Assembly: GCA_963807605.1 (NCBI GenBank)
Contig: CAWECG010000003.1
Location: 672,001-736,000, forward strand
Direction: 5' to 3'
Origin: Candidatus Bathyarchaeota archaeon
GTDB taxonomy: Archaea; Thermoproteota; Bathyarchaeia; 40CM-2-53-6; RBG-13-38-9
Length of the DNA: 64,000 nt
Shown: in pieces, positions 6,120-63,448 of the stretch
Layout of the letters: the number at the start of each line of letters is the position of its first letter
How positions within the stretch are numbered: the stretch's first letter is position 1
Position numbers and translations under genes: made by a program
The notes under the pieces: model-generated
What the model was told of the DNA's origin: nothing
Database searches by the model: none
Seen by the model: the letters and a program-made list of their open reading frames with translations, nothing else

Positions 6120-6323
6120 TAATGCCCTATAGACCGGGGAGCGAGATTCGCACAGTGATTTACTGATATACCACTCCGGAAAGCCAAGGCTGTCAAATTA
6201 AAGGACGCCATTCCTAATATTGGCAGACATATATTCTAGCGCGCGCTAAATACTCTGTATCTGAACACACTCTTGCCTAGGTCTTTGCGAATTTTCTGAG
6301 CCTGACAGCTCAGCTCCAGTTAT

Positions 6324-7427
6324 CTATACTGGAGAAATGCTCATGGAATCTGCCTTGAACTGGACGTAAATCTTCTTTCCTTCAGTAAAATCAAAATCTT
6401 CTAGGGAACTCAAGGTCAGCTCAGAACTTATTGGAAAACCTACATCCACCAACACCTTCGCATTGGACTTCATTCGAACTATCTCGACAATTGTCCCTGC
6501 AAGGTTATTACAGGTGCATCCAAACCACTTGTGATTATTAATAGTGGGTTCACATGACAGAATGACATCTTCAGGCTTGATAGTGACCAAGATGTTTTCC
6601 CCACTCACATTTCCAATCGAACCTGCCAAGAGTTCTGTCCCTTTTATCTCAATCTTACCAGGACTCATTGAATCATGAACGACTCTTCCATCGTAGACGT
6701 TTAGTCCAAGAAACTCTGCTACGTATCTCGAATTTGGCTTCTTCAAGACTTCGTTGCGGTGACCGATCTGTTCTATGCGCCCATTTCCCATTATTGCTAT
6801 TCTATTAGATAGGGTGTAGGCCTCAGCCAAGTCATGGGTTACGTAGATAGATGTTATCTCAAGATTTCTCAGGAGATTCTTAATCTCGGTTCTCAGGTTT
6901 TCTCTGATTTGTGGGTCGAGTGCAGCTAATGGCTCATCCAAGAGCAAGATTTCTGGATTTGTAGCAATGGACCTAGCTAGGGCTACACGCTGCTGCTGTC
7001 CCCCACTGAGTTCGTGTGGATAAGATTCAGCATGACTGCGGAGTCTCACAAATTCCAGAAGCGAATGAGTCTGTTGCTTAATTTCACGCTTGGGCAGGTT
7101 CATTGCTTTCAGGCCGTAAGCTACGTTGTCACGGGCCCTCATATGTGGGAAGAGGGCGTAGTTCTGGAAGACGTATCCTATCTTCCGCTTGGATGGCTTT
7201 ACGTGAATTCTGCGTCTTCCCAACCTTCCATCAACGAGAGTGTTGTTGATAGAGACTTCTCCTTCGTCAGGTCGGCAGAGGCCAGCGATTATATTGAGCA
7301 TTGTTGTTTTGCCGCATCCACTAGGTCCGACCACTGCCAGAAGCTCGTTCTCTCCCACATTCAGCGTGATCCCTTTCAGAACCTCTCTCTTCCCAAATCG
7401 CTTCTTGACTTCATTGAGTTTAATCAT
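6324..7427 (-). CDS. modC: Molybdate/tungstate ABC transporter ATPase with C-terminal TOBE domain
   Basis: Walker A GPSGCGKT, LSGGQQQR, LLLDEP, VTHD. ATG at 7427 overlaps the upstream stop. Confidence 0.85.
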   Translation of the reverse strand: MIKLNEVKKRFGKREVLKGITLNVGENELLAVVGPSGCGKTTMLNIIAGLCRPDEGEVSINNTLVDGRLGRRRIHVKPSKRKIGYVFQNYALFPHMRARDNVAYGLKAMNLPKREIKQQTHSLLEFVRLRSHAESYPHELSGGQQQRVALARSIATNPEILLLDEPLAALDPQIRENLRTEIKNLLRNLEITSIYVTHDLAEAYTLSNRIAIMGNGRIEQIGHRNEVLKKPNSRYVAEFLGLNVYDGRVVHDSMSPGKIEIKGTELLAGSIGNVSGENILVTIKPEDVILSCEPTINNHKWFGCTCNNLAGTIVEIVRMKSNAKVLVDVGFPISSELTLSSLEDFDFTEGKKIYVQFKADSMSISPV

Positions 7428-7582
7428 TGACTTGCACCAAGTCTTCTTCGCTCCACGAGTCTGATGGCTGCGGAAAGAGAGCATGAAATAACAATCAGAA
7501 TTGCAGGCAGCGAATCTGGTGCCAGAGGATCCTTAGTTATCAGCATGAGGCTCATCCGTCGTTTAAAGGGAGCGCTCTTCAA
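7424..7582 (-). pseudogene. Collapsed ModB permease remnant (internal deletion)
   Basis: 52-codon frame in the modB position between modA and modC. It ends AILIVISCSLSAAIRLVERRR like a permease last helix, and its stop is coupled (ATGA) to modC. Confidence 0.5.
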
Positions 7583-7595
7583 GAGCTTCTCGATT

Positions 7596-8459
7596 TCAAG
7601 GAGCCTCAACTGTGACGAATCCCCATTTCTGGATAATCTGCATGCCTTCTTCGGATAATACATAAGCAACGAAAGCTTGTGCAATACGAAGTTGCGGTGA
7701 ATTAGTGAGCACAGCTATCTGATAAGAGGCTTCGACATTGAATTCAGGTGGGATTGATAGCCCGTACAATCCAACCCCTTTGACGGCTACATCCGACAAA
7801 TATACAAACCCTGCATCGGCCAAGCCGTTCATAACCTTGCTTACGACTTGTTGAGCATCAGGCTCGTAAGCAACCACATTCTTCAAGATCTTCGATTTGT
7901 ATTTCTCTATTGCCGGTTTCTGGTAGTATTTGCTGTTATGGTCTCCCCAGCTACTCTCTATCTTCGATAGAACCTGGTCTGTATAGTTTCCAAGCGGTGT
8001 TTTGAAATCGGCCACGACAATCCTTACGCCTTTCTTCACAAGATCCTCAAGACCATACAGCTTTGCGGGATTATCCGCTGGCGTGGCAATAGCAAGTGAA
8101 TTGTAGGCAAATGTTCTTGATGTATTCTGGAAGGTCAGACCTTTGCTCCTAATCAGATCCATCTCGCTGACGCTAGCAGAAGCAAAGATGTCGCAGACTT
8201 GACCTCCAATTATCTGTTCCCTCAGGCTATTGGAGCTCGCCAGATTCAATACGATTTCAACATTGTTCTGACTCTCAAAATTCTGTTTAAATTCTCCAAA
8301 TACGTTAGTTAACGAAGATGCTGCATAGACTCTCAGCTGAACTCTAGTGGTTTGCATATAGTAGGCGTAGCCTGCTACAAGGCTGGCCGCCACCACAGCG
8401 ATCATAATCACTGCCAAGAGCAGCTTCCTAGGTCTATTCAGCGACGTCACGACCTGCAC
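7596..8459 (-). CDS. modA: Molybdate ABC transporter substrate-binding protein
   Basis: YAASSL, ASSNSLREQI, DIFASA, PLGNY, DAGFVYLSD; N-terminal TM anchor. Confidence 0.9.
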   Translation of the reverse strand: MQVVTSLNRPRKLLLAVIMIAVVAASLVAGYAYYMQTTRVQLRVYAASSLTNVFGEFKQNFESQNNVEIVLNLASSNSLREQIIGGQVCDIFASASVSEMDLIRSKGLTFQNTSRTFAYNSLAIATPADNPAKLYGLEDLVKKGVRIVVADFKTPLGNYTDQVLSKIESSWGDHNSKYYQKPAIEKYKSKILKNVVAYEPDAQQVVSKVMNGLADAGFVYLSDVAVKGVGLYGLSIPPEFNVEASYQIAVLTNSPQLRIAQAFVAYVLSEEGMQIIQKWGFVTVEAP

Positions 8460-8708
8460 CTCAAATGAGCAGTATTACATGTGCATTATCAACATTTCGC
8501 GCGCGTAACATTTCAAATTAAAAAATGTTCCTAGGACCCTCAGGGCCATTGTCACCTCGATATCCCAAGTTCAAGTGCATCGAGACTTGCACACGAGTAA
8601 GGGGTTACAATACCGGGCCGGAGAGACTAGCCTTCCCGCAATCTTCATATGCACACGCATATTTTGGTTTGAAGATGAAATCCTGCCAGCATACTTCACT
8701 CAGTATAA

Positions 8709-9686: not shown

Positions 9687-9945
9687 TTCACCTTTCTGCT
9701 AACGCGCATCTCCTCGAAGTGTTAGTTCTCTAGTGTTAGAGTCTATTCATATATAATGTTTACCTCCAACATATCTGTAAGCTAAACCGCTTACGCAAAC
9801 CGACCAAATGTTTGCAAATTCACAATTCATGAGCGCGCGTAATTCAAAAAGCGCGCGGACCTGTAAGTAGATTAGGTTACATTAGCGTCTTGGGTAAGCA
9901 TTATATGTGGCAACTATGAGACATCACACAAGGAGAAGTGAAGGA

Positions 9946-10134: not shown

Positions 10135-10179
10135 TAGCGCACGCGTTTGGGAACACATCATAATGAAATGGTTCGCGCG

Positions 10180-10281
10180 CGTTCGAATCCCTATCAACCC
10201 TGAAACCCCAGTCCTAGATATTCCGAAGATAATCCTCAAGAAGGCTGACAATGCCAACTTGAGAATCAGAATGGACTTCAT
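10180..10281 (-). pseudogene. N-terminal fragment resembling a TauE/SafE exporter
   Basis: MKSILILKLALSAFLRIIFGISRTGVSGLIGI resembles the TauE G(I/L)SKTG(V/L)xG first helix; bracketed by CG motifs at 10172 and 10289. Confidence 0.35.
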
Positions 10282-10481
10282 AGACTTCTTACGCGCGCGT
10301 AACAGCACCGCCTTATGGCGACCTCATAGTAGAATAGCCCAACCGTAACAGGCTAGGATAATTATGGACAACAAAACGGAGTATCGCAGGCGCGAAATAT
10401 GAGAGATCGAAAGACCGTTACGTGCGTGTACACACAATTCTTAAGAACTTCTTAGGGCTAGGTCAGAGTGAGGTGCACAAG

Positions 10482-13639: not shown

Positions 13640-13791
13640 CCTACCAAAAACACATTTTTAGCGCGCGCTATACGTTCACTAAATGATGAAGGGAAAGTTC
13701 ACAGAATGTACACGGGTACTAAACAGTATGAGAAGGTTGAAAGGTATGCTGACGGCTTAATTAAGTATAGGAGTATTGAGAGGTGATCACT

Positions 13792-19188: not shown

Positions 19189-19454
19189 GACATGATGTCA
19201 AGAGCGCGCGTGCTATAGACCCCTTGTTCTACAACAAAATATGGAAACTTGACCAAGAGTATAATCTTGCACAATACCGAATCGCAGAAGAATATCTCAA
19301 TATTATCAGCGGTTCCACAGTTCAATCGAAAATCGATACCGATGAGCACGTGGTGACTTTTTGTTTTGCCTGTGGCACGCTGCTTGAGTCAGGAGTTATA
19401 TGCACGTAGCTAGAAGAATTTATGCAAACCATACGCGTGCTAAGAAATGTCGGG

Positions 19455-20486: not shown

Positions 20487-20863
20487 CCTTTACGCGTCTC
20501 CAGCTTCGATTATTGTAGGAGAAGTCCACCATGGAGAAAATATTAAGCATTTATTTTCGCTTTTCTGGAAGCATTAAGCGCGCCAATCAGATCAACCGTA
20601 ATTATGCCTGAAGGCTTGAAAGAAGACCCAACGTTTCTGACGGCCAATTTCAAGGTCAGCAAGGAACCGTAGCAGTCCGCCCCAACTGATCTTCAGTATG
20701 GGATCGTTTCCCCCTTTTTGTTTTCACTGAAGAACGTGACGCACGTGCGTGAACGCAGGATCTGTCTCCATGAGGCGCTGAAGCACGATGAACCTTGATC
20801 TTTAACCGCAAGTAATTTAAACCCTCTTCATTGACATCTTCAAAGGATTAGGTGTCTTTTAAG

Positions 20864-22240
20864 TTGAGTGAAGAAAAACCTAGCGAAGAAAAGAAGGTTG
20901 AAGAGAAGACGACTGAAGAGAAAAAGAAGATCACTAGACGTGCCTATCTGAAATACGCTGGCGGCGCTGTTGCCGTTGCTGCCATAGCTGCTGCGGGATA
21001 CGAGGCTTACCAGTACTATGGACAACCTGTTACCCCAACTACCTCAGTTTCGCATGTTACACCCCCCCCAGGTTACAAGACAGTGAAAATCGGTGGAACC
21101 AAGCCGCTAACCGGTTCTGCGGCACTAAACGGTATAGATGAAGATCATGGGCTGGAAATCTGGGCGAAGGATTGGGTCAACAACCAAGGCGGAATAAAGG
21201 CTGGAGACGGAAACACATACATGGTCGATTTGACTATCTACAATGACGAGTCAAAACCTGAGAACGTAAGCAGATTCTATGAGAAACTGATCAGCGAGGA
21301 TAAAATGGACTTCCTAATGGGCCCCGTTTGGGGGCCTCTTGGCCAAGCAACGGTCGCTGCGGTTGAGAAATACCATAAACTGGAGATCTATGGAAACTCT
21401 ACCTTCGACCCAGCACAGTGGAAGAACTGGAAATACATAATGATGGTCCAGACCAATGGAAGCGAATACCTGAACATTCTAAATAAGATGATCATCAACA
21501 AGATTATACCCAAAGATCCGGATGCAAAGAACATAGCGATAGTCCACACCGACGATGGATTTGGAATCATAGCTGGAACATATGGCTACCAGTGGGCAAA
21601 GCAGCAGCCTCAACTGAACATAGTCTACTATGAGAAGGTATCTTTCGATTCAACAGATTTTACTCCGGTACTCACAAGGGTCAAACAAGCCAATCCATCG
21701 ATACTCCTATTCGAAGCCGGTCTTAAAGCACCACTGGCTGCAAAGAATGTTCGCGAGCTCGGGCTAGACCTGAAACTATTCTACGCCGGCACCTACGGAG
21801 TTTACAAAACATTCTACGACGGACTCGGCCCCAAGTACGGCGAAGACATAGTCTCTATAACCCAGTGGGTTCCGGGAGAGGACTACCCATCCAACTATGG
21901 ACCAACAGAAGACTGGTTCATGACACAATTAAAGAATGACTACAACGTTACAAATCCAGGATACCCGGCAGGGACAGGTTTCACGCAAGGCCTTATCCTG
22001 CAAGCCGCTATGGAGAAATGTAGTAACCCGTTGGACTCCGACGCGATGAGACAGGTTGTCGGCAATGTAAAGTTCACTGGTTTCTTCGGGGATATAGCCT
22101 TCGATCCGGTGACTGGCTGGCAGACAGGCCACGAGATGTCAGCGCTGCAGTGGCAGGATGGCAAACCAGTCTGCGTCTACCCAGACAAGGTCGCGAAGGC
22201 GCCAGTGAGATATCCAATGGCAAAGTGGTCTACACTCTAA
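20864..22240 (+). CDS. Branched-chain amino acid-type ABC substrate-binding protein with twin-Arg signal (orphan, paralog 1)
   Basis: ITRRAYLKY + hydrophobic stretch; PLTG, VNNQGGI, YNDESKP, DFTPVL, FTGFFGDI. Confidence 0.88.
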   Translation: MSEEKPSEEKKVEEKTTEEKKKITRRAYLKYAGGAVAVAAIAAAGYEAYQYYGQPVTPTTSVSHVTPPPGYKTVKIGGTKPLTGSAALNGIDEDHGLEIWAKDWVNNQGGIKAGDGNTYMVDLTIYNDESKPENVSRFYEKLISEDKMDFLMGPVWGPLGQATVAAVEKYHKLEIYGNSTFDPAQWKNWKYIMMVQTNGSEYLNILNKMIINKIIPKDPDAKNIAIVHTDDGFGIIAGTYGYQWAKQQPQLNIVYYEKVSFDSTDFTPVLTRVKQANPSILLFEAGLKAPLAAKNVRELGLDLKLFYAGTYGVYKTFYDGLGPKYGEDIVSITQWVPGEDYPSNYGPTEDWFMTQLKNDYNVTNPGYPAGTGFTQGLILQAAMEKCSNPLDSDAMRQVVGNVKFTGFFGDIAFDPVTGWQTGHEMSALQWQDGKPVCVYPDKVAKAPVRYPMAKWSTL

Positions 22241-22289: not shown

Positions 22290-22705
22290 AGGATGGATAG
22301 GTATGGTGCTAGAGTTTTTCGCGCAGACAATTGATTTCTGCTTTTGAATATCGGCTTTGCCTAAGATCTAAAGAACACGTGATTCTGTGGTGTTCGGATC
22401 GCTGTAGGAGATCGTTGTCATCTGCGATAGATGATTTCACCGTGATGAGATGCGCGCGCCGAAGCTTTCGGCATGCTTTTGGCGTCATTAAGCTTGCCGA
22501 AGTGGCTTTATCATATCTCTGAAGCTCTGCCAATGAGGAAAGTTGAATTGGGAGAACCTGCCTCTACGCTGCTGAAATACGGTAGTTGAGTATTCCGGAT
22601 TCACATCATCGTGACTCGTTGATCGGTGGGTCTTGCGATTACTATACACTTATCTGACAGAACTTATTAGCACAATATTCGTTCAGTTGGTTTAGGCGCT
22701 TTTAC

Positions 22706-23362: not shown

Positions 23363-24625
23363 ATGGCTTTTTCTCCTGCTATGAAATGCACAGTCAATCG
23401 TTCCTATGTGAAGGCTAACGCAGGTGGGGTAGTGTTTGTAGCAATAGACTTTACGCCACCCCAAGTCGCGACTGTTTACCGACAGAATATGAATGTCTCT
23501 CTTGCTGTTGATTGCAGTGGCTCTATGTCGGGGGGGAAATTGACTCAAGCAAAAGAATCAGCCCTAGCATTGAGCCAGCAACTAGGTCCAAACGACATTA
23601 TCTCCGTCGTTTCCTTTGAGAGTCACGCAAAGGTCAAATTGAAGGCAACGAAAGCCTCCGATTCCGCGGCGATAGATGGGGCTATCGAGAAGATCGAACT
23701 GGGAGGGGGTACGAATATGTATGGTGGTCTCGAGCACTCGTACAAAGAGACACTTAAGAATTCTGGCAACGCCGGCACCATAAGTAGGGTTCTCGTGTTA
23801 ACTGACGGCCAGCCTACCGAAGGAAAAACGAACGATAATGATTTCGTCAAACTCGCCCAGAAGATCAGGGACGACGGAATTACGATAACAACTTTGGGCA
23901 TAGGTAATGACTATAATGACGCTTTGCTAACCAAGATTGCTCAAACTGGCGGTGGACTTTGGTATCACATAAGAGATCCCGCTAGGGATCTTGGGGAGAT
24001 CTTCAAGGAACAAGTCACCCAGATGATAGGGACCCTTGTCAGAAATCCTGTTCTGAAGATGCGACTCATGCCGGGAGCGGAGTTCTCTCAGGTTTTCGCC
24101 GTGAAACCTATGTTAACGCAACTGCCAAACCCGATTGGCGCTAACAATCAATACCAAATTCCCATCAAGGACCTCATCTCAGAGCAAGAACAGAACCTCG
24201 TATTCAAAATAAGATTCCCTCCAAGACAGCCAGGGCTATTCAGGCTACTTCGCGCCGAGTTGCAGAATATATCCCAAGATCTTACAGTAACATATACGAT
24301 AGATCCGAAGCTGTATGAGCCCGAATTGGATCCCTATCCGCGAGCGTTACTTAGACTAAGTGAAGCAACCGTAGTTATGAGAAGCGGAATAGCGAGCAAT
24401 GACCAGACAGTTGCTCGAAACGCCGACACGATATTAAGAGAAATCACTGCTGATGGGAACTTGGCAACCGTTGTGAAAAAGAATCCAGTAGTTGGTGACG
24501 TACTGACAGCATTGCAAGGTACGAAACTCAAGATGAGTAAAGGCCTAATCAGCGAGTCTGACAAGAAACAGATGATGCAAGAATCAACTTTTATAGGTAA
24601 GAAGAAGTCAGACATGAGGAGTTGA
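23363..24625 (+). CDS. von Willebrand factor A domain protein (ArnB-like)
   Basis: MIDAS DCSGSM, GGTN, LTDGQPT, LGIG.DY; helical C-terminus. Confidence 0.9.
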   Translation: MAFSPAMKCTVNRSYVKANAGGVVFVAIDFTPPQVATVYRQNMNVSLAVDCSGSMSGGKLTQAKESALALSQQLGPNDIISVVSFESHAKVKLKATKASDSAAIDGAIEKIELGGGTNMYGGLEHSYKETLKNSGNAGTISRVLVLTDGQPTEGKTNDNDFVKLAQKIRDDGITITTLGIGNDYNDALLTKIAQTGGGLWYHIRDPARDLGEIFKEQVTQMIGTLVRNPVLKMRLMPGAEFSQVFAVKPMLTQLPNPIGANNQYQIPIKDLISEQEQNLVFKIRFPPRQPGLFRLLRAELQNISQDLTVTYTIDPKLYEPELDPYPRALLRLSEATVVMRSGIASNDQTVARNADTILREITADGNLATVVKKNPVVGDVLTALQGTKLKMSKGLISESDKKQMMQESTFIGKKKSDMRS

Positions 24626-24631
24626 TGGATC

Positions 24632-25222
24632 CTGGTCGACTGTCCTTCATGTAACAAGCCGGTTAGACCTGGAGACGGATACTGTGAGAACTGCGGTGCA
24701 GCTGTGACCCAGCCTGTTCAACCTGCTGTTCAGCCGCCAAGCCCAACTTCGAGCAAGATTATGTGTCAGAGTTGCGGTGCAGAGAATCCACCCGATGCGA
24801 TGTTCTGCGAGCTATGTGGAAAGCAGTTGGCTCCGCCAGGTATGGCTCCGAGTCCCGCCCCGGTGGCACTCGCTCAAAGAGGTTACCTGACCTTGCCTGA
24901 TGGTTCACAAATTGAAATTACTCTCTCCCAGAGAGCAATCGGCAGAGTTGATCTTTCCAAGTTTCTAACGGAGAGCGAGGATATTAACCAGATATCAAGG
25001 GCACATGCAACCGTCTGGTCCGAATCTACACCAGACGGGCAAGCAAAATTCTTCGTCGAGGACGGCGTGACAAATGTTCAGAACAAAGCCAGTCTAAACG
25101 GTACTGCACTTGTGAGAAGTGGAAATAGGGAAGAGATTAAAGAGAAGGGTAGACGTGAACTTCAGAACGGTGACGAGATCGATATAGCAGAAGTAATCAA
25201 GTTAAAATTCACTATCCAGTAA
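24632..25222 (+). CDS. Double zinc ribbon + FHA domain protein (ArnA-like)
   Basis: The frame is open upstream of GTG 24704 and adds CPSC...YCENCG. Then CQSCG...FCELCG and FHA motifs IGR, SRAH, SLNGT. No canonical start for the full protein. Confidence 0.85.
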   Translation: MVDCPSCNKPVRPGDGYCENCGAAVTQPVQPAVQPPSPTSSKIMCQSCGAENPPDAMFCELCGKQLAPPGMAPSPAPVALAQRGYLTLPDGSQIEITLSQRAIGRVDLSKFLTESEDINQISRAHATVWSESTPDGQAKFFVEDGVTNVQNKASLNGTALVRSGNREEIKEKGRRELQNGDEIDIAEVIKLKFTIQ

Positions 25223-25237
25223 TCCACAATCTAGTGC

Positions 25238-26425: not shown

Positions 26426-26429
26426 GCAA

Positions 26430-27320: not shown

Positions 27321-27439
27321 CACGCGGGCCGTGATGGATTGGCCGAGAGTTGAAAGACGTGGACAAACAGCAATTTCTGGTTGCTCTGGAAAATTCCAGA
27401 TTCACTAGGTTTCGGAATCTTTCGGAAGGTCTTAACGAC

Positions 27440-27661: not shown

Positions 27662-27790
27662 GTCTTTTAGTCGCCTCTTAAGGGGGAGATTCTGCAGGCG
27701 ATTATTATAAGATTTGTTGGCGAGGTTTCAGTAGATTCTCCGTCTGTGTGTTTATTATCATAATGATAGCATCCGAAGGTGCGCGTTTCT

Positions 27791-40551: not shown

Positions 40552-40612
40552 CCGGTGAATGTCGATGGCCAACAGTCTTACGCACTAGCGCACGCTATCT
40601 GAACCTTATTAA

Positions 40613-42079: not shown

Positions 42080-42204
42080 AAATCATCTCACCTAGTCGAA
42101 CAATCAACCCTGCTCAAATGACATGCAGTTATAGTGAATGTTAGAAATAGTTCTCACCATTTAGGATTCCGCGCATCATAAAGGTCATTTCACTTGTCTA
42201 TTGC

Positions 42205-45913: not shown

Positions 45914-46116
45914 TTCTGCCCACCATACTGAATTCCAGCTTAAGTAGACTACTGATCGCTGAAACTAGTCGAGACCGATGTAGAGTAGTGTCTGGCGTAA
46001 AAGATAAGCTATCAGCCATCCAATGCGCGCGTACCAGCAACAAAGAGTCCGCGCAATCTTCAACACACAAAGACTATAGATAGTGTCACTTCATATCCAG
46101 AATTCAGGTGGTCTGC

Positions 46117-46869
46117 ATGAAATTGCAAGGTAAAGTCACAATCATTACGGGCGCTGGGCGTGGCATAGGACGAGCAACAGCAAGAATGTTCGCACAAGAA
46201 GGAGCCAAGATTGTGATAAATTACAGCAAGTCAGAGAAGGAGGCCTACAGCTTGGCTAGCGAGATCGATAATGGAGGCGGAGAAACACTAGTTGTAAAGG
46301 CAGATGTCTCAAAAGCAGATGAAGTCAAGAAGATGATTCAGAAGACCATTGCGAAGTTCGGTCGAATAGATATCCTCGTGAACAATGCAGGCATAGCAAT
46401 CCCCGCAGCCTTCCTTGACTCTACAGAAGAGATTTGGGACCGGACAATGGATGTAAACTTGAAGGGTGCCTATCTATGTTCAAAAGAAGTTGCGCCGATA
46501 ATGCTCAACCAAAAGAGCGGGAAGATAATCAATATAGCTTCGGTTTCTGGAATGGCTGAAAGGACTGCGGTCAATAACACTGCCTACGTCGTCTCCAAGG
46601 CTGGCGTGATAGGTCTAACTCGATCCCTTGCGGTAAATTTGAGTCCACATGTAAATGTCAACGCTATCTGTCCAGGCCTTATCGATACCGATATGGTAGA
46701 AGCCACTTTCACGCCTGAAAAGAAGACAATGGCGATTCAGGAATATCTTCTAAAGAGAATGGGAAAACCGGAAGAAATAGCCAGCGCTGCCCTGTTTTTG
46801 GCATCGGGCGACTCAGACTTCATAACAGGAGAAATACTGACAGTCGCCGGCGGTAAGGCAATGAGATAG
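46117..46869 (+). CDS. Short-chain dehydrogenase/reductase (FabG-like)
   Basis: TGAGRGIG, NNAG, YVVSK, VNAICPG. Confidence 0.92.
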   Translation: MKLQGKVTIITGAGRGIGRATARMFAQEGAKIVINYSKSEKEAYSLASEIDNGGGETLVVKADVSKADEVKKMIQKTIAKFGRIDILVNNAGIAIPAAFLDSTEEIWDRTMDVNLKGAYLCSKEVAPIMLNQKSGKIINIASVSGMAERTAVNNTAYVVSKAGVIGLTRSLAVNLSPHVNVNAICPGLIDTDMVEATFTPEKKTMAIQEYLLKRMGKPEEIASAALFLASGDSDFITGEILTVAGGKAMR

Positions 46870-46924
46870 AACTAATAGTCTATGTCTGCGCCAAACGCGC
46901 GTCTAGAAAACAGCGCTCTCTTCG

Positions 46925-48187
46925 TTACGAAGTCATGTTGCCCTTTGTCTTTGGGTATGGCACCAATAGTATCGTCAGCAAGGCAATCCCAAGCAGTACG
47001 TATGATAGAATGAATGCCCAGTAGTAGCTTTGGTATGCATCGTAGATCAGACCCGCAGCAACTGGACCGGCAGCCCCGCAACCCATGAAAACGAAGTTCA
47101 TTAGGCCAAAAATGACACCGTACGAAACCAAGCCAAAGGTTCTACTTACAGCCAAAGACATGAAAGGTAGCCAGCAACCCATGCTCAGCCCGAATATGAT
47201 GGCATAGAGTATCAGCACGATTATGGGTATTGCTGATTTCATAGTCATTAGTAGTGTGATTGACGTTACCTGAGTGCCGATTCCCATGACGAGAATGTAC
47301 TTCGCCTGTACATGATCACCCAGCCAACCAAAAACAAATTTGCCTACTCCACTGCCAAAACCGGCCAGACTCATGACTGAGGCGGTCGCAGCTATTGGAA
47401 AGCCAATGCCTTGCAGATACGGTACCTGACTTTGTAAGATTGCATTATTAGACACGGTAAATGCGGCCAAGGCAATCATCAACAACCAGAAGGTGGGCGT
47501 TCTCGAAGCCATTTTGAGGTTTAGACCCATCTCAGGCGTAGCAGTTAGCGGGGTCTCATCATTCGTCTGAGGTGTTTCAACACCATCAGGCAGAAGGCCC
47601 ATCTCGGCTGGATTTGATTTGATTATTAGAAGTGCCAAAGGAGCGATAATCAAAGTGGTCAGAAGCCCAGATATGACACAGGTATTCCGCCAACCGAAGG
47701 CAGGAATGAGGAAGGCTCCAATAATCGGTGGCACAACAGAGCCACCGACGCCGATACCAGTGCCCACAATACCGATAGCCCAACCACGTCGTTTCCGAAA
47801 CCATTTACTAATGACCGTGCTTGCCGGCACCACCCCAATGGCAGCGGAACCTACACCCAAGAAAATCGAAAACAAGTAGAATTGCCAAAGTTCTCTAATA
47901 ATACTGATAAGGATGAAGCCAAGTCCCAACAGAGACGCGCCGGCGGCGATAACATTTCTCTCTCCATAACGCGAGATTAACCGACCAATAAAGGGCGAAG
48001 CTACTCCTATCGATAGATAGACTATGGTAATAATAGTCATTATTCCTGCCCTACTCCAAGCAAATTCATCCTGAAGAGGTTTCACGTAAAAACTGAAAGA
48101 ATACATAATGAAGCCATTCCAGAAAATCTGGCATAGAAAGACAAGCAAAATTATCCAGTAACCATAGAAGAACTTCTTTTCAGCCAT
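46925..48187 (-). CDS. MFS transporter (OFA/MCT-like)
   Basis: About 12 TM helices, GRLISRYGER, KWFRKRRG, GWLGDH. Confidence 0.9.
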   Translation of the reverse strand: MAEKKFFYGYWIILLVFLCQIFWNGFIMYSFSFYVKPLQDEFAWSRAGIMTIITIVYLSIGVASPFIGRLISRYGERNVIAAGASLLGLGFILISIIRELWQFYLFSIFLGVGSAAIGVVPASTVISKWFRKRRGWAIGIVGTGIGVGGSVVPPIIGAFLIPAFGWRNTCVISGLLTTLIIAPLALLIIKSNPAEMGLLPDGVETPQTNDETPLTATPEMGLNLKMASRTPTFWLLMIALAAFTVSNNAILQSQVPYLQGIGFPIAATASVMSLAGFGSGVGKFVFGWLGDHVQAKYILVMGIGTQVTSITLLMTMKSAIPIIVLILYAIIFGLSMGCWLPFMSLAVSRTFGLVSYGVIFGLMNFVFMGCGAAGPVAAGLIYDAYQSYYWAFILSYVLLGIALLTILLVPYPKTKGNMTS

Positions 48188-48351
48188 GCCCTTTCGTCCG
48201 ACAGCCTGAACTAAAAAGCCTTCGCGCGCCTATCATCGCGCGCGCAAATCCCCATAGTTCGTTTAGCATTATCTTGACGACGATGCCGCTCATATCATTG
48301 AGTGTGTGCGAGTGGCAACCTTGATTTAGAAAAACGTTTTCCCAACAAGCG

Positions 48352-48684
48352 TTACTGCTCTAAATCTTTCTTCATTTCCAAAAATTCTTCTCTGCTAATT
48401 TCGCCCCTAGCGTACCTTCTTCTGAGAATTCTAATCTCACGCTCTCCATCCCAATGTCCATGATGCCATGGCCATCTGAATATCCAACTGAGGAACCAAA
48501 GTAGAAATAAGAGCGCTACTAGTTTCCAAATCCAGCTTGAAAAGAGTACCGGCTGTTGAGCCCCGCCGAATATTCCATTAGAAATAACACCAAGTATTAT
48601 TGCAATGACAATCAGGCCAAATGCTATTCTGAAAACAAAGGTCATCCAAAATCTTCCAGAGAACCAATCATCTTCATGTACCAT
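48352..48684 (-). CDS. SHOCT-domain membrane protein
   Basis: Two TM helices plus ILRRRYARGEISREEF. Confidence 0.85.
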   Translation of the reverse strand: MVHEDDWFSGRFWMTFVFRIAFGLIVIAIILGVISNGIFGGAQQPVLFSSWIWKLVALLFLLWFLSWIFRWPWHHGHWDGEREIRILRRRYARGEISREEFLEMKKDLEQ

Positions 48685-50172: not shown

Positions 50173-50431
50173 CTTAAGGACTAAGGAGCGCGCGCGATCG
50201 AACCGTAGCATTTACACCAATCTTTGCAAAATCAATTACGTAGTGAATTTAGAAATCTCGCTTGGGCATGATATCAGAGTGTTTTTACAGTGAGCTGACT
50301 TCGAGACCTTTCACGTAAAAGCCGTTGTCACCTTGCTTTTCTTCATGCCATAGACGTAAACACGTGCCCTTCGTGTGTTCTTTGTAAGTCTTAAGAAGTC
50401 ATGAGAGGATAAGGTTGGGCGGTAGATACGT

Positions 50432-51569: not shown

Positions 51570-51714
51570 CGCATTAATGTGTTCACGCGTGTGTATCAAA
51601 GGATAGACAAGAAAGCCGTGAAAACATAAAACAATGAAGCCAGTATCTGATGGTCTAGATATGTCAACCTAGGTCGGTACTGAACTATGGGCCCCTAATA
51701 TTCTAGCGCGCGCG

Positions 51715-52078
51715 CTTTACGTCCTCCTCCCTGAAGGGGTTTATCTGTATGATGCGAAAGGGAATCAGCTAACACCCGTGCTGGCTGAAGACCTTCGAAC
51801 AAAGGCGACGACTCAGGAATTTATGAAAGAAGCGCCAGTACATCTACCTTTGTTGCAGACTACGCCAAATTTAGAATGATTCCCAGTCCCAGAAGGAGCT
51901 TTATTCTGCCGTTCACACGGGGTTTATCGGCCAGAATGTGTACCTGTATTGCACCTCCGAAGGACTAGGCGCCCGCTTCTATGCTAGCATTGACCAAGCT
52001 TCACTGAAAGATAGTTTGAAACTCCGGGAGGATCAAGCAATCGTTTTTGCTCAAGCAGTTGGGTATCCGAAAGAATAA
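51715..52078 (+). pseudogene. 5'-truncated, frameshifted SagB-like nitroreductase
   Basis: LYVLLPEGVYLYDAKGNQL...EAPV, frameshift, ...GFIGQNVYLYCTSEGLG...AQAVGYPKE*. It begins exactly at TAGCGCGCGCGC. Confidence 0.8.
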
Positions 52079-53263: not shown

Positions 53264-53422
53264 TGAATTCTTGCTGGTAGAGAACTCATTATCTAAAAAA
53301 GATTCAAGGTTAAACACCCGTCTCCGATGTGGTAAGGCAGAGCGTGCGTTATGGAACACTAGAAGAATAAATAAAGCTAAATAAGACCCAGAGAGGGGCT
53401 AACCAGTCATGAGGTTATGTTA

Positions 53423-54814
53423 ATGAGTGATGAAAAACCTAGCGAAGAAAAGAAGGTTGAAGAGAAGACGACTGAAGAGAAGAAGAATATTACTAGACGT
53501 GCCTATCTGAAATACGCTGGCGGCATTGTTGCTGTGGGTGTGATAGCTGCTGCTGGATATGGCGCTTACCAGTTTTACGGAAAGCCTGTGACCCCAAGTG
53601 CCATGAATTCATCTGCAACTCCCACTACGACAAGCACTGGCGGCCAGAAACTGACAGTAAAAGTCGGTGGAACCAAACCCCTAACCAGTATTCAGGCATT
53701 ACAAGGCATAGATGAAAATCGTGGACTACAAATCTGGGCGAATAGATGGGTCAACGACCAAGGCGGAATAAAGGCTGGAGACGGGAACACATACGAGGTA
53801 GAATTAGACATCTACAATGACGAGTCAAAGCCTGAGAATGTCAGCAGATTCTATGAGAAACTCATCAGCGAGGATAAAGTCGACTTCCTGATGGGACCCA
53901 TCTGGGCACCACTTGGCCAAGCTACGGTTGCTGCAGTGGAGAAATATCATAAACTGGAGATTTACGGTAACGCTGTCTTCGACCCAACACAGTGGAAAGA
54001 TTGGAAATACGTAATGATGGTGATTACAAATGGACCCGACTATTTGAACATCCTAACCAAAATGATCATCAACAAAGTTTTACCTCAAGATCCAGATGCA
54101 AAGGATATAGCGATAGTTTACACCGACGATGCATTTGGAAACGTAGCTGGATCATATGGCCTCCAGTGGGCAAAGCAGCAGCCTCAACTCAATGTAGTTT
54201 ACAGTGAAAAGGTATCTTTCGATTCAACAGATTTTACTCCGGTACTCACGAAGGTCAAAGCAGCCAATCCATCGATACTCCTATTCGAAGCCGGTTCGAA
54301 AGCCCCACTGGTTGCTAAGAATGTTCGAGAGATTGGATTGGATCTGAAACTACTGTATTGCGGTACCTACAGTGTGTTCCAACAGTATTACGATGGTCTG
54401 GGTCCCAAGTACGGCGAAAATCTAATCTCGATAACTCAGTGGGTTCCAGGAGAGAACTACCCATCCACCTATGGACCAACAGAAGACTGGTTCCTTTCAA
54501 CATTCAAGAAGGACTACAATGGGGCAACGCCTCAGTACACAGCAGGAACAGGTTTCACGCAAGGCCTCATCTTGCAAGCGGCCATGGAGAAATGCAGCAA
54601 ACCACTGGACTCCGATGCAATGAGACAGGCGGTTGGTGGAGTAAGCTTCACCGGTTTCTTCGGGGATATAGCATTTGACCCGGTAACAGGCTGGCAGACA
54701 GGCCACCAGATGTCGGCGCTCCAGTGGCAGGATGGCAAACCAGTCTGCGTCTACCCAGACAAAGTTGCAAAGGCATCACTAAGATATCCCATGGCGAAAT
54801 GGTCCACGCTCTAG
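53423..54814 (+). CDS. Branched-chain amino acid-type ABC substrate-binding protein with twin-Arg signal (orphan, paralog 2)
   Basis: Colinear and highly similar to 20864-22240; ITRRAYLKY. Confidence 0.88.
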   Translation: MSDEKPSEEKKVEEKTTEEKKNITRRAYLKYAGGIVAVGVIAAAGYGAYQFYGKPVTPSAMNSSATPTTTSTGGQKLTVKVGGTKPLTSIQALQGIDENRGLQIWANRWVNDQGGIKAGDGNTYEVELDIYNDESKPENVSRFYEKLISEDKVDFLMGPIWAPLGQATVAAVEKYHKLEIYGNAVFDPTQWKDWKYVMMVITNGPDYLNILTKMIINKVLPQDPDAKDIAIVYTDDAFGNVAGSYGLQWAKQQPQLNVVYSEKVSFDSTDFTPVLTKVKAANPSILLFEAGSKAPLVAKNVREIGLDLKLLYCGTYSVFQQYYDGLGPKYGENLISITQWVPGENYPSTYGPTEDWFLSTFKKDYNGATPQYTAGTGFTQGLILQAAMEKCSKPLDSDAMRQAVGGVSFTGFFGDIAFDPVTGWQTGHQMSALQWQDGKPVCVYPDKVAKASLRYPMAKWSTL

Positions 54815-55632: not shown

Positions 55633-55799
55633 GCAAAGTCGTTTCAAAACGCACGCGCGAACAGGCAGTTTAGAGCGCTAGCTTATGACCTGGAAGATAA
55701 TTCATCTGACATGCGTGCCACGCTTGTAAATTAACTGAAAACAAACCGACATGTCTTATGCGCGCGTAACCTTAAGCGCGCGCTATGTCTTGCTGGTCT

Positions 55800-57944: not shown

Positions 57945-58208
57945 AAAGCGTACCAGTACAAACCTATCGACCTGAGCCTAGAACAACTGCCCATTTTTTC
58001 TAATCTGTTAACTTAAACAATGATATTACTCTACAGCACGCATTTCTATCTCGGCTAGAGACATAACGCGCGCTAGCTCCTCCGAATTTCAAAACCCCTA
58101 GGTGGTTCAGACGGAGTACAAGTGGATTGCACTCGTAATTACCACTGTCGGGACATGCGCGCGCATAATATTCGCTTTTGAAAGCTAAAACATATCAAGT
58201 TCCATGAG

Positions 58209-59042
58209 TTGTTAGCAGTTGAACAAAGGCTTTCAAATGTGATAGAACGAGAAGTCGAGTGCAAATCTCTGCTTAACAAAAGTCACCTCGAAGACTACTG
58301 CATCAACCCATACATAGGATGTCAACATGCTTGCATGTACTGCTACGCTAATTCCTACACCCAAAAATTCTCGAACCACACGGAATCTTGGGGAGATTTT
58401 GTCGACATCAAAATCAATGCACCTATTGTTCTTGAAAGAGAGATAATAAGAAAACCTAAAGGTACTATTTTCTTCAGCTCCTTAACGGATGCATATCAAC
58501 CAATTGAGCGAGAATATGAGTTGACAAGAAGGTTACTCCTTATTGTGCTCAAGCATCAATTTCCAGTATCGATACAGACAAAGTCCTCTCTTATCATAAG
58601 AGATTTAGACCTCCTCCAAAAGTTCGACAAATGTGAAGTCGGGTTCACAATAACAACGGCAAATGACAATCTGAGAAGGCTATTCGAACCATACTCCTCA
58701 TCCGTCGAGGAGAGAATCTCGGCTATCAAGAAACTAAAGGAAAAAGGTGTGAAGACATTTGTTTTCTTCGGGCCTATTCTTCCACATATCTCAGATCAGA
58801 ACCTCGAAGAGTATTTTCAACAGATTGCAGGTGCCGGTACAGATTACATCTATATTGATCGATTGAATTTGAAGCCAGGTCTATGGATAAAAATCGAAAG
58901 ATTCCTTCAGAGCAACTTTCCACATCTTCACAAGGACTGGCAAGACATACTCCTAGGAAGAAGTGACTACTACCAGAACTTCAAAATGAAGGCGGATAAC
59001 GTATGCAAAGAGTTAAGATTGGAATGTAGGTTCTGCTTTTGA
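58209..59042 (+). CDS. Radical SAM protein, spore-photoproduct-lyase-like family
   Basis: INPY.GCQHACMYCYA, TDAYQP.E, QTKS, RDLD. Confidence 0.88.
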   Translation: MLAVEQRLSNVIEREVECKSLLNKSHLEDYCINPYIGCQHACMYCYANSYTQKFSNHTESWGDFVDIKINAPIVLEREIIRKPKGTIFFSSLTDAYQPIEREYELTRRLLLIVLKHQFPVSIQTKSSLIIRDLDLLQKFDKCEVGFTITTANDNLRRLFEPYSSSVEERISAIKKLKEKGVKTFVFFGPILPHISDQNLEEYFQQIAGAGTDYIYIDRLNLKPGLWIKIERFLQSNFPHLHKDWQDILLGRSDYYQNFKMKADNVCKELRLECRFCF

Positions 59043-59095
59043 AAGCACGCGTTAAGACGGCGTGACGACTACACTAAAGGACCGAGAGATGTAGG

Positions 59096-59866
59096 TTGGT
59101 CTCCAAGACTGCCGCTACGCTAGGTCGTCATCGAAAACTCGCCGTAGTAGTCCTGATATTTATCTTGGCCATGTTGTTCTCACTCGAATACCTCGAAGAC
59201 ATTGCGGAGATAGGTGGCACTCAAGGAACTCAATTACTAGTTTCCTTTGCAGCCTCTCTGCAAATTGGTGCTATTGGTTTCGCTTCTAGTGCTGGTTACG
59301 GTGGCATATTCATCTTAATGTTGCTGGAGGCTGCGGCTTTGCCCGTGCCTAGCGAGATAATCTTGCCCTTTGCAGGGTATTTGGTTTGGAAAGGGACTCT
59401 AAGTTTCTGGCCTGTGGTATTGTTGAGTGTTGTTGCAGCGCTTATCGGGTCTTTCGTAGACTATTATATTGGATGGATAATTGGTGCGCCTCTTCTTACA
59501 TCAAAAAAGATACCATTCGTTAGTTCTGATCATCTTCAAAGAATTCACATGTGGTTCAATCGCTATGGAACTGGGGCTGTGGCTCTTTTCCGTTTGGTTC
59601 CAGCAGCGAGAGTTCTTATCTCATTTCCAGCCGGAGCCTATAGGATGAGCAGGCCAAAATTTGTAATATACACTGCTCTAGGTTGTCTGACTTGGAATTT
59701 TATACTTGTCTATTTAGGTTGGTTGCTTGGATCATCTTGGAGTAGAGTCGTTGAAGCCTTCAGATATTTAGATCTCGTCGCCTACGCTCTTCTTATCCTT
59801 CTTTCAGCTTACGTTTGCTGGATCCTAGCGTTAAAAAGTCAATGGTTTCAACGCAGATCTTGGTGA
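59096..59866 (+). CDS. DedA family membrane protein
   Basis: PVPSE..LPFAG, FRLVP..R.LISFPAG. Confidence 0.9.
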   Translation: MVSKTAATLGRHRKLAVVVLIFILAMLFSLEYLEDIAEIGGTQGTQLLVSFAASLQIGAIGFASSAGYGGIFILMLLEAAALPVPSEIILPFAGYLVWKGTLSFWPVVLLSVVAALIGSFVDYYIGWIIGAPLLTSKKIPFVSSDHLQRIHMWFNRYGTGAVALFRLVPAARVLISFPAGAYRMSRPKFVIYTALGCLTWNFILVYLGWLLGSSWSRVVEAFRYLDLVAYALLILLSAYVCWILALKSQWFQRRSW

Positions 59867-60048
59867 TTACACGCGCCTTGGAAATATGTGCACTACCTTG
59901 AGCGCGCGCTCACCTTTGTATTCCGATGTCATCTCCATTCTCTAGGGTCGAAGGTTGCATCGCAACCGCCTTCTCTATTATTAGTGTGTGCGGCCTCCTC
60001 GAGCCTCAGAGCTTGTTCTATCTCGGGTGAACTGAAAAGCGCCTGTGT

Positions 60049-61814: not shown

Positions 61815-62210
61815 TTACAGTATATCTTTCTTAAAATCTAGCGAGATCGAGTTCACACAGTATCTTTTGCCAGTTGGAGGGGGGCCGTCGTCAAACAGAT
61901 GTCCTAGATGACTTCCACATTTCTTGCACACAACCTCTATGCGATTCATTCCAAAACTATGGTCTGGGTGGAGTTCAACAGCATCTTGTGAAACATCAAA
62001 AAAGCTTGGCCAACCGGTTCCAGAGTTGTATTTCTTGTCCGACTCAAACAATTTGTTACCACAACCCTTGCAAAAATAGACTCCTTTGCCCTTATTATCG
62101 TAGTATTTTCCTGTAAAAGCTGGTTCCGTCCCTTTTTCTCTTAGGACGTGATACTCTTCAGGTGTCAACTTTCGTCTCCATTCTTCTTCGGATGACCTAT
62201 TTGTTGTCAT
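61815..62210 (-). CDS. msrB: Peptide methionine-R-sulfoxide reductase
   Basis: GTE.AF.G, CxxC twice, SGTGWPSF, HLGHLF.DGP, RYCVNS. Confidence 0.95.
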   Translation of the reverse strand: MTTNRSSEEEWRRKLTPEEYHVLREKGTEPAFTGKYYDNKGKGVYFCKGCGNKLFESDKKYNSGTGWPSFFDVSQDAVELHPDHSFGMNRIEVVCKKCGSHLGHLFDDGPPPTGKRYCVNSISLDFKKDIL

Positions 62211-62346
62211 CGTTCATACGCACCGAAGTACTAGTTAGGTTAGGGATTTCATCAATAAAGATGATTCCCTTAGTGCCGGTAACGACTGACGAACACATTA
62301 CACGTGCGTGATTTTGCTTATTACCACAACCGCGCGTTCATTTTGA

Positions 62347-62697
62347 CTAGAGTTTATTTCTAACCTCAGGGAAGTCATGTTTGGATGTTCTTATCGTCTT
62401 ATGCAAAGCTGATAGTACTATGGCTTTATTTTCGCAGAAGGGCCTATGTTCTGTGTCCCGTTTCACTGTAATGCATTCCCCTCGATTCAGGACTACTTTG
62501 AATTCCTTGGTCTCCAAAGTAAAGCTGCCCTCAAGGACTAGAAAGAATTCATCTCTTGGATGCGTGTGCCAGAGAAAAGTACCTTTGAATAAGGCTATTC
62601 TTACAAGGTATTCTCCGTCCAGCTCTGCCAAATCAAATGGTGAGAAGGCGTCTAATGTAGCAGCTATTTTATGAACGTTGTATCTCTCACTTGACAT
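62347..62697 (-). CDS. Cupin domain protein
   Basis: FLWHTHPRDEFFLVLEG...EHRP. Confidence 0.85.
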   Translation of the reverse strand: MSSERYNVHKIAATLDAFSPFDLAELDGEYLVRIALFKGTFLWHTHPRDEFFLVLEGSFTLETKEFKVVLNRGECITVKRDTEHRPFCENKAIVLSALHKTIRTSKHDFPEVRNKL

Positions 62698-62913
62698 ACC
62701 AATTCCACGCATAATGTCGGTATTCTTTTCACAATGCCCTAGCATTTATTGAATTTTTCCATATTACATAGAGTCAGTCGCGCGTGGGCCATACCGATTT
62801 CTAAACCAATAGTTCCGACCGTCGATGAATCAATTCTGAGAAAAGCTCGTAGTGTGACGACGGTCATGTTTTTAAGTTGAGAGAGCAGAACATCTAATTG
62901 GAGTAGCCTAATT

Positions 62914-63237
62914 ATGTTGTATGAGTGGCGAGTCTATGAGGTGTTGCCCGGCAAGATGGGCGAGTTGCATGCCCGGTTCCAGAACATCACATTGAAGTTT
63001 TTCGAGAAACATGGTATCAAGGTCGTTGGTTTCTGGGAGGCGGTCATCGGGGTGACGAACACATTATACTATATGCTCGTCTGGGAGAACATGGCACAAA
63101 GAGAGAAAGTGTGGAATTCCTTCCAGTCGGATCCTGCGTGGATCAAGGCTCGACAAGAGACGGAAAAGGAGGGCCCAATTGTCCAGAGAGTTGTCAACAC
63201 CCTTCTAAGCCCGACACCATACTCTTCTATGAGATAA
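62914..63237 (+). CDS. NIPSNAP family protein
   Basis: YEWRVYEVLPGK, FEKHG, W..F.SDP.W, LSPTPYS. Confidence 0.9.
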   Translation: MLYEWRVYEVLPGKMGELHARFQNITLKFFEKHGIKVVGFWEAVIGVTNTLYYMLVWENMAQREKVWNSFQSDPAWIKARQETEKEGPIVQRVVNTLLSPTPYSSMR

Positions 63238-63448
63238 GTGGGCCCTATGAGGTATCTATCACGCGTGCTGCAAACGATTTTGTGACCTTTGACTTTCCTT
63301 ATAGCAATTCGCGCTGGATGGGTGTTTAGCAGACTACCCGAGCACTACAACCTCTCCTTCAATCAAACGCGCACGTAAAACCTAAGATCAACGAAGCCTT
63401 CTTCATCTTTGCTGATACATCTACCACTTGGATAGCGAGGAAGTACGA

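Follow-up and report, generated by a model that had tools for sequence, protein, structure and literature searches.

What is a short palindrome of alternating C and G doing between one gene module and the next, again and again, in an archaeal chromosome? The question is raised by a stretch of 64,000 nucleotides (positions 672001-736000 of contig C3 of the genome G000; hereafter the window), for which a first-pass annotation had proposed that a symmetric CG palindrome joins unrelated gene cassettes in either orientation. We report here that two insertion sequences (ISs), IS1 and IS2, insert into this palindrome, and that new copies of it arise at deletion joints between closely related strains. 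We favour, tentatively and at rather less than full conviction, an explanation in which the palindrome is a scar and a landing pad of these elements.

The source genome, G000, is 2.65 Mb in five contigs (C1-C5) with a GC content of 47%. The genome is archaeal, and the genes of the window include one for an XPB helicase and one for a tRNA with an intron; the closest public relatives of the XPB protein are found in soil metagenome-assembled genomes (MAGs) labelled Bathyarchaeia, Euryarchaeota or Methanomicrobia, and near-identical DNA is present in soil, peat and wetland metagenomes. Comparisons were made with 40 relatives (G001 and so on), whose genera include those labelled g3, g4, g5, g7 and g8 and whose families include f2, and, over 28501-48500 of the window, with contigs of related strains of 95-99% identity, two of which are referred to as X1 and X2. 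Throughout, a run is a maximal alternating C/G stretch, and the genome-wide set of sites comprises 447 runs of at least 7 nt. The open reading frame (ORF) calls are crude, with over-extended starts, and count 18% of the genome as intergenic.

The motif is a discrete unit

The octamer GCGCGCGC is the most over-represented 8-mer of the genome (298 copies observed against 25 expected), and the enriched tracts are all alternating: (GC)4, (CG)4-5 and CACACACA (212 against 41). With its flanking A and T it forms the palindrome A(GC)4T, AGCGCGCGCT, present in 106 copies where 1.4 are expected genome-wide, 92 of the 106 being intergenic; the reversed control T(GC)4A, TGCGCGCGCA, occurs once. Intergenic A(GC)nT sequences number 119, 34, 92 and 5 for n of 2, 3, 4 and 5 respectively, a series that indicates a discrete unit and not a microsatellite, and that rules out slippage as its origin. 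Aligned copies consist of A, eight alternating C/G and T, with A at position -1 in 86% and T at position +1 in 83%; the preference for T at -2 and for A at +2 is weaker, and among 198 aligned copies there is zero information beyond 2 nt on either side of the 8-nt core. The unit is 10-12 bp long, tA(GC)4Ta, the commonest 12-mer being TA-GCGC-GCGC-TA, and there are minor classes A(CG)4T, A(CG)5T and a 9-nt run, ACGCGCGCGCT; both phases, (GC)n and (CG)n, have the A..T flanks in common. Neighbouring runs come within 50 nt of one another in only 11 pairs, and the gaps between adjacent runs are irregular and mostly 0.5-10 kb. With no information past 2 nt and no favoured spacing, a longer repeat, a miniature inverted-repeat transposable element (MITE) or a partner motif can be rejected.

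Judged by the excess of perfect, 1-off and 2-off copies, which stands at 105:88:98 and near a neutral birth-death ratio, the copies decay roughly neutrally, which speaks against a binding site under sequence constraint. Per path, transitions occur twice as often as transversions, and CpG transitions number 63 where 10.5 are expected.

The window itself contains 44 maximal alternating C/G runs of at least 6 nt, together with 60 CpG-rich alternating purine/pyrimidine runs of at least 8 nt (51 of them intergenic) where a first-order Markov model predicts 22.5 +/- 5.1. The first-pass count of more than 50 copies, variants with CG changed to CA or TG included, is thus borne out, as is enrichment over a Markov background, which is strong and lineage-specific; the seven perfect palindromes listed at that stage are also all in place (TAGCGCGCGCTA at 6237, 13659 and 33252, TTACGCGCGCGTAA at 10289, AACGCGCGCGTT at 37338, ATGCGCGCGCAT at 58155 and TGAGCGCGCGCTCA at 59899). 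The intergenic DNA, described as AT-rich, is not markedly so at 45% GC, and the motif is not special to the window, since there are 447 runs genome-wide.

Two insertion sequences enter the motif

IS1, an element of about 1.1 kb, occurs seven times in G000, and IS2, of about 1.13 kb, about seven times. Their DDE transposases share 41% identity and score best, below the curated cut-offs, to the IS1182 and IS5 models; no other enzymes are directly tied to the site. Each of the seven IS1 copies has the flanks (t)A-GCGCGC ... GCGCGC-T(a), with exactly six C/G at each of the 14 ends; the copy in the window (29725-30831, plus strand, with an open frame at 29778-30806) is an IS5/IS1182-like DDE element standing between a left half-site, ctaGCGCGCG, at 29720-29726 and a right half-site, GCGCGCtat, at 30831-30836. 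TA as the target duplication of IS1 fails at three of the seven copies, so that any duplication must lie within the C/G run. Four of the five paired IS2 copies lie in runs of at least 7 nt, and only a 2-bp CG duplication fits all five, the reconstructed targets being (CG)5, ACGCGCGCGCT, CCGCGCGCT, CGCG and A(CG)5T. A third element, IS3, served as a control (eight full copies of 1079 bp, for example at C1:152073-153151, with the terminal repeat TGCTGTGTTGCGCGACTAGG and a 297-aa DDE_Tnp_1 frame); it has clean 8-bp target duplications at random, unrelated sites, which shows that the assembly preserves the flanks of recent insertions and has not scrambled them.

IS1 and IS2 insert into the motif: as expected for the target of an IS5/IS1182-like IS, independent copies stand at the same sequence and an IS-free allele retains the intact site. 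Four observations suggest that the elements also bring C/G tips with them. These are the six C/G at all 14 IS1 ends; the IS2-like elements of G001, G002, G008 and G018, which end in (GC)3-4 even in motif-poor genomes; the G008 copy of such an element, with a direct repeat of 6 nt, TAGACT, beyond its runs; and the G000 ortholog of one G001 insertion site, the only usable case among the G001, G002 and G008 copies, in which there is no run. The paralog of one IS2 flank has CG only, and at the IS2 copy at C1:359514 the right flank matches its paralog at 8 of 11 nt, which is too weak to define a virgin site.

We note in passing that an IS2-like element of G001 (contig C343; L054, 120-210) lies 8 nt downstream of a tRNA 3' end (...GGTCCACCA), beside an A(GC)4 run, and that tRNA-end fragments recur in the motif-rich islands of G000, for example beside IS1 at C3:1083304.

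The motif at rearrangement joints

The strain contigs show what happens at individual sites. In contigs lacking IS1, position 29721 is joined to 30831 and the joint reads CTA(GC)4TAT. Within a methyltransferase ORF (29115-29786, unbroken in the window), 317 bp (29359-29675) are replaced by CGCGCGC, which abuts a native GCGC at 29676, and in X1 a 101-bp deletion (32314-32414) has GAGCGCGCGC as filler. In both X1 and X2, a 2441-bp deletion (37253-39693) removes the XPB gene and the 5' part of the next gene; it extends from an existing 7-nt run at 37247-37253 to a native GCGC at 39694, with TTAATTGCGCGC as filler. New copies of the motif are born where (GC)n filler takes the place of a short native patch or of a longer stretch that is deleted. 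A further 853 bp (46060-46912), with a probable short-chain dehydrogenase (SDR) gene at 46108-46869, are absent from X1 and X2 at a clean joint without filler or motif, and a 7-nt run at 46025-46031 lies 29 nt to the left of the edge; paralogs of this segment occur elsewhere in G000 and in G001.

At a greater distance, we compared a quartet of genus g3 genomes (about 89-92% nucleotide identity) at 11 runs from 60 kb of G013. For two of them at least one relative has the run in the same place, and three have no aligned counterpart; four are absent in a relative, the motif replacing a patch of 7-14 nt, sometimes with indels of about 18 nt beside it, and four coincide with one end of a homology block or come within about 13 nt of it. 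A DinB-family gene of the window has two runs on its 3' side (31586-31622) and a copy on its 5' side (32209-32216), and its G001 ortholog likewise has runs on both sides, at shifted positions.

Joints are also evident among paralogs within G000. When 400 nt on each side of all 447 sites were compared with the whole genome, the ends of non-self alignments formed a sharp peak, at 102 of the sites, exactly where the motif begins or stops (offsets of -8 to -10 and of +8 to +10), the flanks of IS1 and IS2 copies included. In most non-IS pairs the partner copy runs on into unrelated sequence and has no motif there, and homology almost never resumes within 15 kb, which excludes simple insertion as an explanation of these junctions. 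In 15 of 45 non-redundant junctions the point of breakage, placed on the motif-free paralog, is within a long ORF, from which it follows that the motif-bearing copy is a truncated gene fragment. The motif at C1:402937 abuts a 3' fragment (C1:402107-402935) from a paralog of the Peripla_BP_6 solute-binding protein gene at 20852-22240 of the window; a second such gene lies at 53417-54814, and the family has at least six members genome-wide with about 79-86% DNA identity.

Similar joints can be seen elsewhere in the window. A 234-bp paralogous segment (90% to C1:480100-480332) begins directly after the TAGCGCGCGCTA copy at 33254-33261, a 619-bp segment (95% to C1:371936-372554) begins directly after the (GC)5 run at 51706-51715, and a 1008-bp segment (58894-59901, 99.8% to C3:308298-309305) stops at the edge of the TGAGCGCGCGCTCA copy at 59902-59909, the C3:308298-309305 copy having no motif at the corresponding end. 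The copy at 40336-40343, 10 nt beyond a stop codon, has a paralog at C4:31183 in which the motif is 20 nt nearer the shared segment.

Of the ends of low-copy repeats, 8.1% fall at the motif, against a genome background of 0.54% and 1.4% at shifted controls. A segment usually has the motif at one end only; both ends lie at the motif in 4 of 289 alignments. The segments being mostly bounded at one end, they do not act like two-ended cassettes. The broader suggestion of the first-pass annotation, a recombination hotspot, is partly supported, since breakpoints do coincide with the motif, whether at paralog ends, at the edges of synteny blocks or where strains differ by indels; no support was obtained for a system of cassettes or a recombinase behind them.

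Distribution in the genome and among relatives

About 77% of the 447 runs are intergenic, that is, in the 18% of the genome outside ORF calls. Their density per kb is 0.68 in tandem, 0.93 in convergent and 0.68 in divergent spacers, and this likeness argues against a promoter or terminator role; such an element was rejected on that ground and because there is no distance peak. Many copies in the window stand 0-40 nt from a stop codon, and genome-wide the excess at 3' ends is only modest: by the crude ORF calls, 83 sites are at most 40 nt from a stop, and 43 at most 40 nt from a start. The remark that copies are not seen inside operons is largely trivial, because the gaps within operons are too short for a copy.

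The runs are unevenly spread along the contigs, with 8-19 per 25 kb in some stretches, the window among them, and 0-3 over hundreds of kb elsewhere. The motif-rich islands have a lower ORF density (0.77 against 0.83) and more repeats, ISs and conserved short repeats. Five relatives are colinear with most of a 20-kb region that is poor in the motif, whereas two motif-rich regions have only scattered genes in common with those relatives. The motif thus clusters in non-syntenic accessory islands and is rare in the one colinear core region examined, the pattern of core and accessory densities that the idea of a breakpoint motif had called for.

In most genera of the host's family the 10-mer is present in 28-119 copies, with 0-5 of the reversed control; genera g5 and g8, like nine further families of the order, essentially lack it.

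The islands have a second repeat, of the form (TG)n-GCTCACCA / TGGTGAGC-(AC)n, at C1:520580-522445 of G000 and at many other island sites; a (CA)n tract at C1:520660 exceeds 60 nt. In G001, G002, G003, G004 and G007, pieces of this repeat 30-90 nt long occur in many copies at 80-98% identity. Rfam and tRNA scans of one island gave no matches.

Other features of the window

The remaining copies are scattered over the whole stretch. Near its left end are ctaGCGCGCGCtaa at 6239-6246, 78 nt beyond the stop of an ABC ATPase gene, ttCGCGCGCGta at 8498-8505, two 7-nt runs 18 nt apart (9833-9839 and 9851-9857), a (CG)4 copy at 10174-10181 and TTACGCGCGCGTAA at 10292-10299. Further on, TAGCGCGCGCTA at 13661-13668 lies 22 nt beyond a stop, a 7-nt run at 19204-19210 lies 16 nt beyond the stop of a pdxA-like gene, and there is a (GC)4 copy at 22452-22459. 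Upstream of XPB is AACGCGCGCGTT (37340-37347), and to the right of it are two runs 14 nt apart (48223-48245), a 9-nt run at 50188-50196, 16 nt beyond a stop, two runs 16 nt apart (55760-55783), a 7-nt run at 58067-58073 and ATGCGCGCGCAT at 58157-58164.

Of the genes, the intron-bearing tRNA gene at 40616-40719 (minus strand; 104 nt, Rfam tRNA score 47 bits) was missed by ARAGORN; strain-contig joints skip 47-51 nt at 40643-40696, probably because intron-less copies or other tRNA genes map there. The large subunit of a CO/xanthine-dehydrogenase-like enzyme (33461-35823, minus strand) consists of two overlapping ORFs, MoCoBD_1 at 34471-35823 and MoCoBD_2 at 33461-34474, adjoining the 2Fe-2S and FAD subunits, and is either a split gene or a frameshift. 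Positions 23363-28990 hold a cluster of VWA, zinc-ribbon/FHA, Ser/Thr kinase-FHA and PP2C phosphatase genes, with a second kinase-FHA gene on the opposite strand.

Discussion

Of a by-product of the traffic in mobile DNA and a dedicated system of gene cassettes, the motif is more likely to be the former. The reading that we favour, and which we would call plausible but not yet probable, is that it is a neutral, reusable scar and landing pad of IS1 and IS2 and behaves as a hotspot of DNA breakage and rejoining in the plastic part of the genome. The palindrome would be mainly a scar of (C)GCGC tips that are carried or created at IS ends: a staggered cut inside the self-complementary GCGC would allow the flanks to re-anneal into (GC)4 when the element leaves, and this scar, or a regenerated site, could then act as a cohesive landing pad for the next insertion. 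IS-mediated deletions and duplications may account for the one-ended junctions and the truncated genes, and the association with module boundaries would reflect where insertions and such deletions or duplications are tolerated, not cassette exchange. Such a generator of the motif is an inference.

Several findings weigh against a scar left by these elements. Transposases of the IS1/IS2 type were not found in the motif-rich genomes G003, G004, G007, G009, G010, G013 and G015 and were found in the motif-poor G008 and G012, although those genomes are fragmentary MAGs in which ISs often fail to assemble; G013, however, comes in no more than 50 contigs. The 1-off/perfect ratio of copies is about 2 in G000, G001, G002, G003 and G013 and 4.2 in G010; as it is not higher where no IS was found, the copies there look no older. 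The runs flanking IS2 differ in length and include a 4-nt target, which is explained more simply by insertion into pre-existing runs than by runs borne on the element. No excision event was observed directly, and the IS-free (GC)4 allele could equally be a target that was never occupied. Target duplications around solo motifs were looked for and none was seen, nor is there a continuum of partly deleted IS ends, with one solo IS1 end only. Finally, Ku does not track the motif across the 40 relatives, since within the family it is found only in G000 and it is also present in the motif-less family f2. PolX, found among the same genomes only in G000, G004 and G038 and within the family only in the first two of these, does not track the motif either. 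The Ku homologue (C1:590767-591306, E 8e-40) and the PolX-family polymerase (C1:345956-346138) of G000 both lie in motif-rich stretches of C1.

With such points in mind, other sources of the motif have to be weighed. A fragile host element, in which Z-DNA-prone A(GC)4T and (CA)n tracts are kept in the spacers of transcription units for a supercoil, boundary or protein-binding role and their frequent breaks attract ISs and yield rearrangements, is in our view unlikely. It would account for the enrichment of alternating tracts alone, in both phases and with the same A..T flanks, for the abundance of the motif in genomes where neither IS was found, and for the entry of IS2 into runs of varied length. 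Eight bp is short for Z-DNA, and the palindrome, with its alternating CG over only 8-10 bp, is from its sequence a putative Z-forming tract. CG repeats that form Z-DNA reportedly give rise to deletions and double-strand breaks (PMC6957503, PMC13079400). Such a role fits poorly with the rarity of the motif in the colinear core examined, where supercoil relief and boundaries are needed too, with near-neutral decay without positional conservation, with the de novo copies at deletion joints, one of them inside a gene, and with the lack of preference relative to promoters or terminators; the roughly 75-fold excess (106 copies against 1.4) would moreover need a generator or selection. A generator other than an IS is conceivable, in that a joining process peculiar to the family and independent of IS1 and IS2 might write the palindrome afresh at broken ends, possibly through self-complementary (GC)n tails or a GC linker annealing any two ends. 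We regard this as decidedly unlikely; if true, A(GC)4T would be the signature of an undescribed archaeal end-joining or mini-palindrome insertion by which the accessory genome is built, the ISs merely exploiting the sites, and a motif made without ISs would point to an unknown DNA-joining activity.

Site-specific recombination, with a recombinase joining modules at a symmetric site in either orientation, appears quite improbable. Breakpoints, presence/absence edges and synteny-block ends do fall at the motif, the modules are unrelated and in both orientations, and the 853-bp SDR-gene segment is present or absent between strains; yet its indel joint has no motif, both ends are motif-bounded in so few of the shared segments, and most partner copies lack the motif at the junction, unlike the product of reciprocal site-by-site exchange. 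The 10-12 conserved bp with independent flanks also fall short of the length of known tyrosine or serine recombinase sites, and the joints, with their variable filler and the deletions beside them, look more like error-prone joining than conservative recombination. No co-occurring recombinase or C5-methyltransferase was found, though integrases were not searched systematically: no integrase domain is present in 30 window ORFs scanned, and PF00589 was not searched genome-wide. We give a similarly low probability to imported DNA, in which the motif, perhaps a regulatory or packaging site, came from a pool of plasmids, viruses or integrative elements and the islands are integrated foreign DNA. 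Its restriction to non-syntenic islands with fewer ORFs, more repeats and more ISs would be expected on this basis, but the islands hold ordinary accessory genes (transporters, kinases, the CO-dehydrogenase-like enzyme and XPB), copies are born in situ at deletion joints between strains 95-99% identical, and enrichment is confined to several genera of one family. Very improbable, finally, is an iterated palindrome like HIP1 that is driven by a methyltransferase or by biased repair. The motif is indeed a short GC palindrome, a lineage-specific top 8-mer with a symmetric A..T extension, HIP1 too being extended symmetrically in some cyanobacteria (PMC4390886), and its decay is rich in CpG transitions. 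Against this, most runs are intergenic and clustered in islands, the CpG observed/expected ratio in the window is 0.86 and so not strongly depleted, and a search limited to PF00145 found no C5-cytosine methyltransferase in G000 or in most motif-rich relatives, only 2 of the 40 having one, without relation to motif counts.

Should the scar-and-landing-pad reading be correct, the 10-bp palindrome would be a base-precise record of chromosome cuts and rejoinings in an uncultured soil archaeon, from which insertions, deletions and gene truncations of the accessory genome could be read directly. An IS family together with its own scar would form a self-reinforcing landing-pad system, with a bearing on 'safe havens' for mobile DNA and on plastic archaeal islands. 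For annotation, the motif is of use as a flag for joints that vary between strains and for fragments of pseudogenes.

Relation to known systems

The motif is a short interspersed palindrome tied to IS activity, and the literature searched contains no prior description of GCGCGCGC intergenic motifs in archaea or of ISs targeting CGCGCG. The points of note are the precision of the joints and a generator that is so far a putative one. The earlier exclusions of attC, dif, CRISPR and HIP1 hold. A CRISPR array would have regular direct repeats of 24-48 bp, where the gaps here are irregular and mostly 0.5-10 kb; DNA uptake sequences or uptake signal sequences (DUS/USS) would occur about once per kb, core genes included, where long stretches including the colinear core have 0-3 runs per 25 kb; and a MITE would be a unit of 50-500 bp with a target duplication and with terminal inverted repeats like those of an IS, where there is no conservation beyond 12 bp and there are no flanking direct repeats. 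All three were rejected.

Integron cassettes resemble this region in that unrelated genes are separated by a recurring symmetric site in accessory DNA. The attC site is an imperfect palindrome of 57-141 bp with conserved R and L boxes (GTTRRRY core), and integron cassettes have the site at both ends and share one orientation downstream of intI/attI; here there is no long imperfect palindrome, there are no two-ended cassettes, and genes lie on both strands. Like HIP1 (PMC4390886, PMC5861425), the motif is a GC palindrome of 8 bp and, among the octamers of a lineage, the most over-represented; unlike HIP1, which is hyper-abundant genome-wide and in coding DNA too, it is largely intergenic and island-bound, and no methylase matching the cognate orphan methyltransferase of HIP1 was found in the PF00145 search.

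Other parallels lie with palindromes that are visited by mobile elements. Repetitive extragenic palindromes (REPs), with their mosaics (bacterial interspersed mosaic elements, BIMEs) and their hairpin-forming doublets (REPINs), likewise number hundreds of intergenic copies entered by specific ISs. IS1397 lands in REP/BIME elements. ISPpu9 similarly uses the REPs of P. putida as landing sites (bioRxiv 10.1101/2025.01.17.633520). REPs are, however, imperfect palindromes of 20-40 bp with a conserved 5' tetranucleotide, often in inverted doublets, where the motif is a perfect palindrome of 10-12 bp; and they are chromosome-wide and mobilized by Y1 (HUH) enzymes, the REP-associated tyrosine transposases (RAYTs), each encoded by a single-copy gene with the repeats on its flanks, where the motif is confined to islands and the four Y1_Tnp matches of G000 (C5:72411, C4:558457, C4:76255 and C4:636953) all lie in 25-kb bins with 0-3 runs. 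Membership of the REP/REPIN-RAYT system was rejected on both palindrome form and Y1 genes. The GC clusters of yeast mitochondria (PMC4478555) are also GC palindromes in spacers that are present or absent between close genomes, with altered adjacent nucleotides, and are reported as recombination and deletion hotspots of unresolved mechanism; they are longer (GC42) and duplicate an AG target, whereas the motif is 10-12 bp, shows no target duplication and lies on an archaeal chromosome.

The form of the motif recalls that of an excision footprint. Footprints of Tc1/mariner-IS630 elements consist of TA, end nucleotides and TA, and are palindromic because the element ends are inverted repeats. TA-GCGC-GCGC-TA has just this form of two element tips between TAs. 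The transposases here are, however, IS5/IS1182-like, TA is not a strict duplication (it fails at three IS1 copies), and excision was not seen. The transposases themselves lead to a further comparison, with IS1272 of the IS1182 family, which targets palindromes and replaces its target without target duplication, a mode called 'IR-replacing' transposition (PMC5678879). The targets of IS1272 are varied stem-loops of 22-30 bp, where IS1 and IS2 use one fixed C/G palindrome of 8-10 bp, split in halves and present in hundreds of copies, and their transposases fall below the cut-offs of the curated families. In common with IS1272, IS1 and IS2 have best scores to the IS1182 and IS5 models and sit in a palindrome without an outside target duplication, and the birth of new motif copies resembles a short-patch replacement.

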